A stretch of 64,000 nucleotides of DNA, from the IMG/VR virus record IMGVR_UViG_3300048854_000081, positions 286,037 to 350,036 of that record; one strand, written 5' to 3'. The first letter of the stretch is position 1. Each line of letters opens with the position of its first letter. This DNA is from a virus. Its lineage: Duplodnaviria > Caudoviricetes. Both the position numbers and the translations under genes were made by a program. The notes under the pieces are model-generated. The model saw only the letters and a list, made by a program, of their open reading frames with translations, was not told the DNA's origin and made no database searches. Positions 41,391 through 62,600 of this stretch are shown here, one piece after another.

Positions 41391-41681
41391 ATGGCAACTA
41401 AGATAGGCATCGAACCAGAAAACGATTTGGTTTTCGTTTCTCAGGTTAAGGTAAAGCAGACAGTCTCAGCCAGCGGCATCATTCTTACGGAAGTTAAGAA
41501 GTTCGGTGATGTTCTGACAGGTACGGTTGTTGCTGTAAGCGAGAACAGTGAATATCCACTTACTGTTAAGTTAGACAACACTGTCTATTTCATTGAGAAA
41601 GATATTTGGAGCAAGACTGTTCTTGATGGTAAGGAATATCTAGTTCTCCAAGAGAAGAATATCCTAGGGTACGAAGCCTAA
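41391..41681 (+). CDS. GroES-like co-chaperonin
   Basis: IEP.ND.V, SASGIIL, GTVVAV, DGKEYLVL.E..ILG. Confidence 0.85.
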   Translation: MATKIGIEPENDLVFVSQVKVKQTVSASGIILTEVKKFGDVLTGTVVAVSENSEYPLTVKLDNTVYFIEKDIWSKTVLDGKEYLVLQEKNILGYEA

Positions 41682-41770
41682 CGCACGCGTTAGGACATTA
41701 TTGGGAAGATGGTTGATAGAGTTTAACATCCCACTTGACTTTATCATCCATCTTCACATATTATATCCAC

Positions 41771-41915
41771 GTTGAAGATTTAAGGCCACATGATCGTGAA
41801 CGATCTATCAGTAACGACGGTTAATGGTAAAGGGATCATCGTCGTAAGAGGACCATAAGTCGTCCCGACTGACGAATTACTACATAGATGTGTAGAGGGC
41901 TGATCTTCAACACCA
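41771..41915 (+). ncRNA. unknown structured RNA ending in ACCA
   Basis: GTTGAAGAT/ATCTTCAAC closing stem plus ACCA; multiple internal hairpins; TTGACT-N18-TATTAT promoter directly upstream. Confidence 0.7.
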
Positions 41916-42260
41916 ATTGATCAAGGATTGTCAGTCACATGAACAGTCGGATCAAGTATCACCATATTGCGTGTCAGAATCAAATGGCTTACGTGCTCTA
42001 ACCAATACAATTCCATTACCGAAAGCTTCGGCAATGAATCTCTTAGGAATTATCGAATTCCCTAAGATTAACAATATGTTAAGATTAACGTATTTCGTAA
42101 TCAAACATGGCTTATCGCTGACAGAAGTATATCATCGTATAAATCGTTACACAAGTGACATTCCTTGTGGCGTTAATGATGCGTTCAATAATATAGAGTG
42201 ATTGACACATCCATTGAAATGTATTACTATCTACCCATCATATACGTATGGAGTAGCATC

Positions 42261-42470
42261 ATGCTTGCCGACTATCTAATTGCTCGTCTATTTGTCACTG
42301 TTGGTGGCGCAGGTTTCCTTCTCCTTGTCCTTCTTGGTGGTGCTGCCATGACCTTTATGGCATGGGGATTCCTTGCTTTAATCGTTTATGTGTTGGTAGT
42401 ATGGGGCATTCTCTACTTGCTGGCACTGGCTCTGATCAGTTGGCTCAAGAAGAACGCACGCTTCAAGTAA
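42261..42470 (+). CDS. small membrane protein
   Basis: RBS GGAG; TTGACA-N17-TACTAT upstream. Confidence 0.55.
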   Translation: MLADYLIARLFVTVGGAGFLLLVLLGGAAMTFMAWGFLALIVYVLVVWGILYLLALALISWLKKNARFK

Positions 42471-42490: not shown

Positions 42491-42673
42491 ATGAATGAAT
42501 ACGTTGTTTGTTACAGATGGGAACGACGCACTACCGCTGATTTTGATCAATTGATAGAATATGTGAAATCTGAAGGCACGTCAGAGGTTGAGTCAATCAC
42601 AAAGCTATTGCTTGGGAAGTATGAAGTGAAGTATGTAGCCACGTTCTACTACGCTCGCCGAGCGCTTGACTAA
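42491..42673 (+). CDS. hypothetical protein
   Basis: RBS AAGGA. Confidence 0.55.
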   Translation: MNEYVVCYRWERRTTADFDQLIEYVKSEGTSEVESITKLLLGKYEVKYVATFYYARRALD

Positions 42674-42726
42674 TTCCATTACACCTCCTATAATATATTT
42701 CATCACATCAATACAGAGATATAAAC

Positions 42727-44913
42727 ATGATCGTCAACAATGAAGATAATGGTTCTGTCGTTTCCTCGGGTCTTGTCAGCGAAGTTGCTTTCAAGATCGA
42801 ACTAGCAGGTAAAGCGTTCAGAATGCTATCTGATGGCCTGTACACCAATAAGCAGGGCTCCATTGTGCGCGAACTGTCGTGCAACGCATTGGATTCCCAC
42901 AAGGCTGTTGGTAAGGCGGACGTTCCGTTTGAAATCCATCTTCCTTCCATCTACGAACCGACGTTCTCTGTTCGTGACTTCGGTCTCGGCATGTCTCCGG
43001 ACATGATCGAAAATACGTATGCCACCTACTTCAAGTCCACCAAGGACAACTCTAACGATGCCGTAGGTGGTTTCGGTCTCGGTGGTAAGACTCCGTTCTG
43101 CTACACCACAAGCTTCAGCATCACCTCCATTTACGAAGGTGTGAAGTATTTCTATACGGCCATGCTTGGTAACAATGGCGTGCCTGTCGTCTCCCGTTTT
43201 GGTGAGGAACCGACTGATGAAATCAATGGCGTGACCATCGAATTCAACGTTAAGGAACGCGACTATCGTCGCTTTGGCGAAGAGGTTGTAAGTCAGCTTC
43301 GCTTCTTTAACGTTAAGCCTACGCTTCTCAATAACGTTTATGATCTGGAATTCGAAAATATCGACTACCGTGAAACGTTTGGTAACTTCCGTGTGTCGGA
43401 TAGCTTGGACGGTTTGTATATCGTTCAGGGTGAGGTGGGCTACCCAGTTGATATGACGGAACTTCGGGATAAGGTATCCGACGAGAACCTTTCTCTATTC
43501 AATCTCTATACTGATGGTGCTATGTTCTTTGACATCGGCCAGATTGAGGTAACGGTGAGCCGTGAGTCGGTTCAGTTCAGCCCACTGACCATCAAGAGTC
43601 TTGAGACCTTCATTGAAACGGTTGGCCCGATCATCTATAAGAATATTCGCGAAAAGGTTCATGCCTTCTCTTGCGATTGGGATCGTCTGTCCTATCTTAA
43701 CGAATCTGAAAACAATCGTGTGTTTGCCACCCTTGCGAAGATGAAGTTCGGTGAAGGTGGTAACACGGGTGATAAAAAGCTTAAGATTGAAGGTGGTACC
43801 AAAACTCAGCCGTTCTATATCAATGCCACGAAATCTCGCGGTGGTGTTGTTGGTCGTCCTAATTTTTATGTGTCCTTCCCGGTTCCTCATAAGAATAAGC
43901 GTACCTATGCTAAGGCTGGTGACTTCACTGTGAAGCCTTCGGCTGATACGATCATCATCGTTCGCGACCAGACCAAGAGTGCCATTGCAAAGTTTTATCG
44001 ATTCGCTGATCAAAATTACGGTAAGACGGTCATGCTCATTGAATCGGAGAACACTGTAGATCAGAAGTTCTACGATTTCATTACCGAATCTTTTGGTGGT
44101 GCTCCGTTCATCAAGGCGTCGGAACTTCCTGAAACTCCTAAGTCGGGGTATCAGCGTGGTAAGCCTCCGGTTGTTTACGAAAATACCTCAACTACGTTGG
44201 TCGATAGTTCTCTGAGTTATTGGAAGAAAGTTTACGATGAAGAAGAGATTGAAACGGGTTACTATTTGACTTACACGACGTGGCCTTACATCGACGGTGA
44301 TACGTCCATTGTCAAGGCAGTGCATGATGCTGGTTTGTTCGATAAGCCGATTTATGTTATCAAGAAGGCCAAGGCTGATCTTCTGATTGACAATCCTAAC
44401 TTTGAGTGTGCCGCAAAACATGCCAAGGCGATCTTTGATGATCGTGAGAAGGATATGGATAAGCACGACCGCATGATTGAGCGTAGCCGTAAGGCTTATG
44501 CAATTCTTGATCGAGTCAGGGAAGCTCGCACTGCGTGTGGTCCGATCTGGCAGCATCGTGAACGGCTTGCTCCGCATTCTGAGCATATCAATAGCTTGAA
44601 TCGTTTGACTCGTGTAGAAAAGGTCGCAACCCGTTATACCGAAATTGTTACAAAAAAGATTAAGAAAGAAAACCGTCTGATTCGTGATATGCTTAGCCAG
44701 AAATCGATGAATAGGACTGATGACCACAGGGAACATGCTGAAAAGGTTATTTCCATTGAGGATTCGATCCGGGTTCGTGATCGTTATCCTCTGCTTGAAA
44801 CGGTTAATTACAATACAAGCTGGTTGGATGCTGAAGCAAAGCTTCGTCAAGCTGCTGCTCTTGTAGCTTACATTAAGATGGTTGACAACGTTGAAGCGCT
44901 TGGCGTAGAATGA
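42727..44913 (+). CDS. rIIA: RIIA-like protein (GHKL ATPase N-terminus)
   Basis: LY..K..SIVRELSCNALDSH, RDFGLGM, STK..SN..GGFGLGGK; followed by rIIB. Confidence 0.88.
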   Translation: MIVNNEDNGSVVSSGLVSEVAFKIELAGKAFRMLSDGLYTNKQGSIVRELSCNALDSHKAVGKADVPFEIHLPSIYEPTFSVRDFGLGMSPDMIENTYATYFKSTKDNSNDAVGGFGLGGKTPFCYTTSFSITSIYEGVKYFYTAMLGNNGVPVVSRFGEEPTDEINGVTIEFNVKERDYRRFGEEVVSQLRFFNVKPTLLNNVYDLEFENIDYRETFGNFRVSDSLDGLYIVQGEVGYPVDMTELRDKVSDENLSLFNLYTDGAMFFDIGQIEVTVSRESVQFSPLTIKSLETFIETVGPIIYKNIREKVHAFSCDWDRLSYLNESENNRVFATLAKMKFGEGGNTGDKKLKIEGGTKTQPFYINATKSRGGVVGRPNFYVSFPVPHKNKRTYAKAGDFTVKPSADTIIIVRDQTKSAIAKFYRFADQNYGKTVMLIESENTVDQKFYDFITESFGGAPFIKASELPETPKSGYQRGKPPVVYENTSTTLVDSSLSYWKKVYDEEEIETGYYLTYTTWPYIDGDTSIVKAVHDAGLFDKPIYVIKKAKADLLIDNPNFECAAKHAKAIFDDREKDMDKHDRMIERSRKAYAILDRVREARTACGPIWQHRERLAPHSEHINSLNRLTRVEKVATRYTEIVTKKIKKENRLIRDMLSQKSMNRTDDHREHAEKVISIEDSIRVRDRYPLLETVNYNTSWLDAEAKLRQAAALVAYIKMVDNVEALGVE

Positions 44914-44951: not shown

Positions 44952-45998
44952 ATGAGTAACACACCCCAAAAGCCTATCCCGTATCAGGTGAAGACTAACG
45001 GTAGCATTAACCTATTCGTAAATGGTTCAATCAAAACAATTGGTCCGGACGATCTTAACTATAAGGTCGTCCTTCAAGCCTTGAAGCGAGAGGACTGGAA
45101 TAAAGTTCTCGGTAGCCTTTCGGTTAAGGGTGCTATTGCTGATCATACCGATGGTCGCGTGGAAGTCTTCGGTGAAGAAATTCACATTGACAAGAAGCCA
45201 CTTCCTTCCGCTATTTCTAAGCGTGTAATTCCGCTTCTACGTAAGGCTGACTTCAACCTCAAGCCGCTGTTCCGTTTGCTTGAGAATATCGAAGCTAACC
45301 CGGCAGAATTCAGCCGCAATGAACTGTACCTGTTCCTTGAAGCGAATGATCTTCCGTTCACTGCCGATGGTCATTTCTTGGCTTACAAGATGGTCAGTGA
45401 AGATTATAAGGATTTGCATAGCCGTAAGATTGACAACTCCGTTGGTAACGTGGTTGAAATGCCACGTGAAGAAGTTAATCAGGATCGTGCAAAAACCTGT
45501 TCGGTGGGTCTCCATTTCTGTGCATTCAGCTATCTACCGGCCGCATACTACACGAACAATGATAGCAATCGTTTGATGGTGGTTAAGATCAATCCGGCTG
45601 ACGTGGTAAGCATTCCTAACGATTACGACAATGCGAAGGGTCGTTGCTGGCGCTATGAAGTGGTCGATGAACTGGCACACTTCGAAGATTCTCTGCCAGT
45701 TGGCTACACGGATACATACGCTGATCACATTGATGATACTGCCGAAGATGATGAGCCGGAAGTGTTGGATGATGACGAAGATGTGCTGATTACTCCTAAG
45801 AAAGCTACGGTAAGCGCAACTCCTACCAAGGCAAAGGGTGACTACTCGGCCAAGCTCGATGCTGCCAAGGTTCGCAAGATTCGTAAGCTTCTTGCTGAAG
45901 GCGACTGGACCCTAGTGGGTATCGCTGAGGTCATCGGTTGTTCGGCACGTCAGGTGGCTCGTGTACGTGATGGTGAAGTCTGGACTGACATCAAGTAA
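44952..45998 (+). CDS. rIIB: RIIB-like protein
   Basis: ELYLFL..NDLP.T.DG.FLAYK, MPR..V..D...TCS.GLHFC, V.INPADVVSIP.DY..AKGRC..YEV; C-terminal HTH. Confidence 0.9.
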   Translation: MSNTPQKPIPYQVKTNGSINLFVNGSIKTIGPDDLNYKVVLQALKREDWNKVLGSLSVKGAIADHTDGRVEVFGEEIHIDKKPLPSAISKRVIPLLRKADFNLKPLFRLLENIEANPAEFSRNELYLFLEANDLPFTADGHFLAYKMVSEDYKDLHSRKIDNSVGNVVEMPREEVNQDRAKTCSVGLHFCAFSYLPAAYYTNNDSNRLMVVKINPADVVSIPNDYDNAKGRCWRYEVVDELAHFEDSLPVGYTDTYADHIDDTAEDDEPEVLDDDEDVLITPKKATVSATPTKAKGDYSAKLDAAKVRKIRKLLAEGDWTLVGIAEVIGCSARQVARVRDGEVWTDIK

Positions 45999-50356: not shown

Positions 50357-50424
50357 GCATTTTGTTTAAAGAGTTGACAAAATTACTAGATAGTGTAAAC
50401 TTCTATAAATAGATTTACAAAATT

Positions 50425-50508
50425 GGGCGAGTGGTGGAACGGTAGACGCACCACGCTTAGAACGTGGCGCCGTAAGGTGTGTGGGTTCGAATCCCACCTT
50501 GCCCACCA
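50425..50508 (+). tRNA. tRNA-Leu(TAG)
   Basis: Cloverleaf, CCACG-ctTAGaa-CGTGG, long V arm, GTTCGAATC, CCA. Confidence 0.93.
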
Positions 50509-62359: not shown

Positions 62360-62375
62360 CATAAATAGATTTCAT

Positions 62376-62451: not shown

Positions 62452-62459
62452 ATTTCGTA

Positions 62460-62600
62460 AGTCAAAATGCGTAGCTGATGCGCTGGTAGACCGGTTAGTG
62501 ACCGGGCAGCACCAGACGGTGCCGTATAGAAATATACGAGTCGAAGCCAAGGGTAACCAGTTCCCTCGTGTCGGAATTATTCAGTACCGACTTGACTCAA
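62460..62600 (+). ncRNA. unknown multibranch structured RNA downstream of tRNA-Gly
   Basis: AGTCAA/TTGACT, CTGGT/ACCAG, CCGGT/ACCGG, GCACC/GGTGC, CGTATA-gaaa-TATACG, GTCGG/CCGAC. Confidence 0.6.

Follow-up and report, generated by a model that had tools for sequence, protein, structure and literature searches.

The locus described here lies in the genome of an uncultured jumbo phage (350 kb), in which ARAGORN finds 41 tRNA genes. The window, i.e., the whole 64-kb stretch of DNA that was analysed, is the end of a 350,036-bp IMG/VR virus record rated 100% complete; unless another reference is given, positions are those of the window. Genes for a MoxR-like ATPase, a DUF2201/VWA-type protein and a GroES/Cpn10-like protein are followed at this locus by rIIA and rIIB (Table 1). 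The GroES-like gene is separated from a conserved gene for a small membrane protein, itself located upstream of rIIA/rIIB, by an ORF-poor insert of ~520 nt (about 41690-42200) that is present in this phage only and contains the candidate structured RNA considered here, hereafter the element. Upstream of rIIA, positions 42261-42470 encode a 69-aa two-helix membrane protein and positions 42491-42673 a 60-aa protein; both genes are kept in most syntenic relatives, with 28-47% identity, and appear to be parts of a conserved rII-region module in this phage group. The kinship to cultured phages is distant, as the rIIA protein is at most 32% identical to those of the Xanthomonas jumbo phages of the XacN1 / Xoo-sp13 type.

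Table 1. Genes, promoters and candidate RNA features at the locus (window positions).
Feature	Position	Strand	Remarks
GroES/Cpn10-like gene	41391-41681		
7-bp hairpin over the stop codon of the GroES-like gene	41677-41694	+	Based on the fold and on relatives' sequences
18-bp imperfect hairpin, GAAGATGG-T-TGATAGAGTT / GACTTTATCA-T-CCATCTTC	41705-41755	+	Terminator-like for the upstream gene
Sigma-70-type promoter, TTGACT-N18-TATTAT	41735-41764	+	10/12 consensus matches; predicted +1 is G41771
Candidate structured RNA domain (element), 145 nt	41771-41915	+	Terminal helix, internal hairpins, 3′ ACCA
14-nt word, ACATGATCGTGAAC	41788-41801	+	13/14 bases match the rIIA start-codon region, 42725-42738
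Hairpin 1, GATCG-TGAA-CGATC	41792-41805	+	5 bp, UGAA loop; pair probability 0.89-0.94
3′ hairpin, CTACAT-AGAT-GTGTAG	41880-41895	+	6 bp; pair probability 0.88-0.99
Doubtful 94-codon ORF	41917-42201	+	TTG start, no Shine-Dalgarno sequence, contains strong hairpins
Next promoter, TTGACA-N17-TACTAT	42202-42230	+	Precedes the conserved 69-aa membrane-protein gene
rIIA	42727-44913		
rIIB	44952-45998		

The closest relatives of the rIIA protein among 5.8 billion proteins are 38-47% identical. Six of these relatives keep the synteny of the locus, in the order Cpn10, gap, membrane protein (64-86 aa), ~60-aa protein, rIIA and rIIB. The gap between Cpn10 and the membrane protein is hypervariable among them, being occupied by unrelated small ORFs, by an AT-rich spacer with a terminator or by almost nothing, and the two small genes are all that these loci share with the window in that stretch. 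We found no match to the element in the six syntenic loci by blastn, tblastx or covariance model, no DNA match among 50,697 phage records (blastn, tblastn), and no paralogue in the phage's own genome by DNA comparison, covariance model or short-word blast. The covariance model also found nothing in 80 further IMG/VR rIIA loci (690 kb) or in five complete related jumbo phages (340-385 kb). Exact-word scans of viral, metagenome and species-genome collections gave chance matches only, which the covariance model rejected. Searches for related loci with single proteins returned nothing, and the GroES-like protein had no match among the 50,697 phage records. The sole other copy of the element is in a second assembly of the same phage, where it is 100% identical, with no variation. 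The phage is represented in Logan run SRR35925193. Since a covariance model built on a single sequence has limited reach, these negative results exclude close homologues, not distant ones.

The element is preceded by a sigma-70-type promoter whose -10 hexamer (41759-41764) ends 6 nt before the terminal helix, as the earlier note had placed it; the first base of the helix, 7 nt beyond the final base of the -10, coincides with the canonical +1. Genome-wide counts of promoter-like sequences show an enrichment at the expected spacings. With the strict -10 TATWAT, spacings of 16, 17 and 18 nt gave 15, 14 and 4 matches, respectively; the four occurrences of TTGACW-N18-TATWAT compare with 0-1 at spacings of 13-15 and 19-22 nt. 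The looser pattern TTGACW...TAnnnT with a 17-nt spacer occurs 61 times vs. ~10 expected. The claim that the element has its own promoter is supported by this spacing enrichment together with the position of the helix start, and the sequence is best described as a credible promoter and a high-quality member of an enriched class. Downstream of the insert, an equivalent of the promoter at 42202-42230 precedes the membrane-protein gene in most relatives.

On the upstream side, the motif CGCnnGCGTTA, which forms the hairpin over the stop codon of the GroES-like gene, is also found 3′ of this gene in most syntenic relatives. The loop and 3′ arm of the 18-bp imperfect hairpin that follows hold the -35 of the element's promoter, so that terminator and promoter overlap. 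The region 41664-41772 folds with a z-score of -5.6 and is more strikingly structured than the element itself. As judged from the predicted fold, it probably terminates the GroES transcript, and the element's transcription unit would therefore be insulated from the upstream gene.

The terminal helix of the element is formed by GTTGAAGATT (41771-41780) and GATCTTCAAC (41902-41911). The earlier note had described a 9-bp closing stem followed by ACCA; both are in the sequence, and the helix comprises nine Watson-Crick pairs plus one U-G pair, i.e., 10 bp. Across a 3-nt bulge, it is extended by GGCC/GGCT (41784-41787/41898-41901) to 10+4 bp. The ACCA (41912-41915) lies directly 3′ of the helix and is followed by an A/U-rich trailer. 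In the ensemble computation, the terminal helix and the two hairpins listed in Table 1 have pair probabilities of 0.88-1.0. The minimum free energy (MFE) of the element is -46.7 kcal/mol on the plus strand, with a z-score of about -3.6 to -3.76, and none of 200 shuffled sequences folded as well; the opposite strand yields -36.5 kcal/mol and a z-score of -1.8. The 145-nt domain remains autonomous when 490 nt are folded together.

All the remaining sequence words named in the earlier note were found at their positions, including the CTACAT/GTGTAG hairpin; its GATCGT/ACGATC hairpin is present with 5 bp instead of 6, because the 6-bp version would leave a 2-nt loop. The interior that it proposed fared less well. 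A central three-way junction, closed by TCAGT/ACTGA and holding ACGACG/CGTCGT, folds at -41.1 kcal/mol, 5.6 kcal/mol worse than the MFE structure, with a pair probability of ~0.05 in the ensemble, and the possible ATGGT/ACCAT loop pairing would share bases with the GGAC/GTCC stem, with which it competes. Given that the helix and the hairpins are robust, whereas the junction is disfavoured and the loop contact competes with a stem, the folding calculations confirm the outer architecture of that model and not its inner one.

To place this fold against the genomic background, we collected every locally optimal structure no longer than 150 nt on both strands of the window and kept the non-overlapping ones of at least 110 nt and -42 kcal/mol or lower (n=170), with dinucleotide-shuffle z-scores for 157. 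The optimisation of the frame in this null set mirrors what the eye of the earlier note's author had effectively done; a genome scan on a fixed 30-nt grid was discarded as a null because such a grid misses helix-closed structures. Sorted by z-score, the element is 34th among the 157 frame-optimised structures; the 33 that match or surpass it include many within genes. In the full set of 170, its MFE frequency places it 23rd and its ensemble diversity 83rd. Measured against such a frame-optimised set, the stability and definition of the fold are ordinary for this genome, and the fold alone is therefore not exceptional.

The layout of the locus is shared with the RNA genes of the same phage, in which 40 of the 41 tRNA genes encode the CCA followed by an A/T-rich trailer and a sigma-70-type promoter precedes several of the stand-alone tRNAs by 8-13 nt. 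Like those stand-alone genes, the element has a promoter a few nucleotides upstream, an end-to-end terminal helix, NCCA and an A/T-rich trailer; unlike them, it has no cloverleaf, D or T loops or anticodon arm, and its helix is 10+4 bp vs. 7 bp. The ACCA end and the distance from any tRNA, both pointed out previously, are real: the nearest tRNA gene found by ARAGORN is at 50425, 8.5 kb away. In general, the 41 tRNA genes are spread over many small clusters. The motif (C/A)TAAATAG, which resembles the T4-type late promoter TATAAATA, precedes the 5′ ends of at least eight of them by ~8-20 nt, e.g., at 62360-62368 before tRNA-Gly (62376) and at 50400-50408 (G000 336436-336444) before tRNA-Leu (50425); late promoters would thus seem to serve some tRNAs and sigma-70-type early promoters others. 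Outside the window, two adjacent tRNA genes with CUA anticodons (G000:C1:26819-26975, minus strand) are amber suppressors that ARAGORN labels 'Pyl'; the same pair is present in the distantly related phage XacN1 (PMC5852040).

The absence of a recognised family, which the earlier note had conceded, was a fair description. The element had no match to Rfam 15, whose families include riboswitches, ribozymes, 6S, SRP and group I/II introns, at the gathering score, where the only matches in the window were five tRNAs elsewhere, and a search of 41600-42300 at E-values of up to 10 returned only chance matches to eukaryotic miRNA and snoRNA models. The tRNA family (RF00005) was ruled out: an encoded 3′ NCCA follows a terminal helix here as it does in a tRNA, but ARAGORN found nothing at default or relaxed thresholds (ps80-90) or with introns allowed, and Rfam gave no match. 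A tmRNA was likewise ruled out, as the ARAGORN tmRNA mode (-m) at ps80 and Rfam both found none. A Y RNA (YrlA) was rejected because the 350-kb genome has no match to TROVE (Ro60/Rsr), the controls having matched, and there was no Rfam Y-RNA match either. A retron msr-msd RNA was rejected because the genome has no reverse transcriptase (no RVT_1 match, with controls matched). In tmRNA and in the minihelix model substrates of RNase P and of the CCA-adding enzyme, a long terminal helix carries a single-stranded 3′ NCCA, and by analogy the element may present a similar end; it differs from such substrates in having no G3:U70 pair, tag reading frame or pseudoknot architecture.

Among phage RNAs, T4 RNAs C and D (species 1 and 2; rnaC, 139 nt; rnaD, 119 nt) are structured and have no assigned function (PMC3014915). 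Like the element, they are phage-encoded, highly structured and ~120-145 nt long, and belong to genomes rich in tRNA genes. Unlike the element, they form the end of the tRNA operon and are released from the tRNA precursor by cleavage (T4 annotation), and rnaC has a canonical tRNA T-arm, whereas the element has none and stands alone. Kinship with rnaC and rnaD was rejected, as a covariance model of the element run unfiltered on the T4 tRNA region gave only noise (at most 12 bits) and nothing on either gene. A T4-type position in a tRNA operon was also rejected, given the distance to the nearest tRNA and the element's own promoter. The closest positional analogue of rnaC in the window, since rnaC follows the T4 tRNA cluster, is another structure of ~149 nt (62452-62600; MFE -47.4 kcal/mol, z-score -2.95) located directly after tRNA-Gly. 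Orphan RNAs have also been described in the jumbo phage PA5oct (ncRNA001-004, 236-619 nt; PMC7318152). These share with the element a location in ORF-free jumbo-phage regions and the lack of similarity to anything else; they were defined by RNA-seq and have no recognisable promoters, whereas the promoter and structure of the element are predicted.

No ORF of at least 30 codons overlaps 41771-41915 in any frame, and in an independently assembled copy of this phage no gene was called within 41682-42260. The 94-codon ORF that begins just downstream of the ACCA includes two strong hairpins (42014-42036 and 42041-42067). The codon score of this ORF can be read either way, being near that of a conserved small gene, yet within the range of shadow ORFs (~90th percentile). 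The ORF itself is absent from 1.84 billion representative proteins and has no credible homologue there, the sole match being a repeat-like one to a 3,062-aa protein. On balance, it is more likely untranslated. We found no intrinsic terminator 3′ of the element's ACCA; a discrete 3′ end would therefore need processing.

The conjunction of these features was compared with chance. Among the 118 promoter matches in the genome, an ORF follows at a median distance of 38 nt; at least 145 nt are ORF-free after 25 of them (21%), and at least 7 of these 25 serve tRNA genes. Starting from every promoter match, at offsets of 3-13 nt, we looked for NCCA directly behind a helix that has at least 10 bp, G-U pairs included, and encloses 60-260 nt. 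Such a combination is expected by chance 0.40 times per genome, or ~0.15 times for offsets of 5-8 nt; requiring an ORF-free stretch (x 21%) lowers the expectation to about 0.03-0.08. Promoter-anchored helices of at least 7 bp ending in NCCA, with true tRNAs excluded, are not enriched, with four found vs. ~4.8 expected. The conjunction of promoter, helix, NCCA and ORF-free stretch is thus suggestive, not decisive. One further arrangement of this kind lies outside the window (G000:C1:57039-57225, plus strand), where a sigma-70-type promoter precedes an ORF-free stretch, with the next ORF 618 nt away, and a 7-bp end-to-end helix closes 150 nt, with GCCA at its end; this could be a further orphan RNA candidate or a chance arrangement.

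The element also shares a short word with the start of rIIA. The sequence ACATGATCGTSAAC has exactly two copies in the 350-kb genome, one in the element and the other at the rIIA start codon, 937 nt apart, and both are located ~25-32 nt downstream of a TTGACT-type promoter. The copy in the element spans the junction and the 5′ arm of hairpin 1. In a local alignment of the two regions, 15 of 17 positions are identical, a score reached by 11 of 1,000 shuffles (p ~0.01, judged after the fact), and no similarity can be aligned beyond these 17 nt. The shared word may have been left by a partial duplication, may mimic the rIIA initiation region, or may be a coincidence. A Pfam search for a RegA-type repressor found no match, but was uninformative because its controls were likewise unmatched.

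Taken together, these data make it plausible that the element is an orphan phage small RNA or a structured 5′ leader. It stays an unproven candidate because many other folds of this genome are at least as good as its own and none of the relatives carries it. Our preferred reading, held tentatively and with rather less than even confidence, is that of an orphan early RNA gene organised like a stand-alone tRNA gene, whose product would be a stable RNA of ~145 nt with ends set by transcription start and tRNA-style 3′ trimming. It is also possible, though in our judgement doubtful, that the promoter drives a longer early transcript (~300-430 nt or more), perhaps extending into the membrane-protein, 60-aa, rIIA and rIIB genes, and that the element is its structured 5′ leader; the base-paired triphosphate end would then shield the transcript from 5′-end-dependent decay, or the domain would serve cis-regulation. 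The credible promoter and the lack of a terminator after the ACCA suit such a leader, the next strong hairpins (42014-42067) lying ~100-150 nt further downstream. Additionally, 41771-42260 as a whole folds with a z-score of -2.8 into two domains, and T4 uses structured 5′ regions of mRNAs for control (PMC3014915). Against a leader, the strong second promoter, conserved in most relatives, stands directly before the downstream gene, and the downstream genes therefore do not need the element's promoter. There is also no convincing ORF with a Shine-Dalgarno sequence within 41916-42200, and a 14-bp terminal helix ending in NCCA would be an unusual feature of a leader.

We consider it unlikely that there is no functional RNA at all, the fold having arisen by chance in a fast-evolving spacer and the promoter being incidental or vestigial; the insert would in that case be decaying DNA, e.g., a partial duplication of the rIIA promoter and start or the remnant of a lost accessory gene. 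Such an origin would agree with the ordinary thermodynamic signal, the hypervariable gap between the GroES-like and membrane-protein genes, and the lack of a homologue in the collections searched. The conjunction of features itself is expected 0.03-0.4 times by chance, and the one sequence with which the element has ACATGATCGTSAAC in common is the rIIA start behind a similar TTGACT promoter. The quality of the promoter nevertheless argues against a chance fold, as does a helix whose start coincides exactly with the predicted +1 and which is followed by ACCA and an A/T trailer, like the phage's tRNA genes, and an rIIA duplication would have to account for a similarity that stops at 17 nt. It is highly improbable that the region encodes small proteins and that the RNA structure is incidental or controls their translation. 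Three candidate ORFs exist, with 22 codons (41790-41858, MIVNDLSV...), 20 codons (41939-42001) and 94 codons; the first opens with the same MIVN residues and the same 12 nt as rIIA, and the codon score of the last approaches that of a conserved small gene. None of them, however, has a good, properly spaced Shine-Dalgarno sequence, which the neighbouring real genes have. In the predicted structure, the region around the start of the 22-codon ORF lies buried, and the 94-codon ORF was not called as a gene, has a codon score that shadow ORFs also reach and, as noted above, has a single repeat-like database match.

If the element is an orphan early RNA gene, the host-type (sigma-70-like) promoter would fire into the ORF-poor insert, and the predicted first nucleotide of the transcript is G41771. 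Its initial 145 nt would fold as an autonomous domain in which the 10-bp terminal helix and its four additional pairs enclose several hairpins. The gene layout, with ACCA and an A/U-rich trailer, is that of the phage's stand-alone tRNA genes, and the 3′ end of the RNA would be formed as in a tRNA. At the 5′ end, the RNA would either keep its primary triphosphate or have been trimmed by RNase P; the 3′ end would arise through an endonucleolytic cut in the A/U-rich trailer, followed by exonucleolytic trimming to the helix-protected ACCA. As for its role, we infer that the product would bind a protein as a mimic of the tRNA acceptor end, rather than act as a base-pairing regulator. The analysis shows the features of the sequence, the class of its promoter, the absence of a gene and the fold, whereas the start site, processing, stability and function of the RNA are deduced from them.

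A more specific proposal, which we regard as very unlikely, is that the phage makes the RNA early in infection as a deliberate molecular mimic. In one version, the long helix and ACCA would imitate a tRNA acceptor end, be kept intact by CCA-adding and trimming enzymes, and thereby sequester a host factor or a defence nuclease directed at tRNA 3′ ends. In the other, hairpin 1 would display a copy of the rIIA start-codon region (ACAUGAUCGUSAAC) and titrate a binder of the rIIA translation-initiation site.

At present, the evidence for the element is contextual, and its value is that of a candidate for testing, not of a discovery. Jumbo phages have previously been shown to make orphan ncRNAs (PMC7318152), and T4 RNAs C and D still have no explained role after fifty years. 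If real, an RNA that combines a tRNA-like end with a non-tRNA core and stands alone would be a convenient, self-contained test case. Its small size allows expression from a plasmid, and it could thus be used to ask whether tRNA-processing enzymes, defence nucleases or translational regulators are among its partners.
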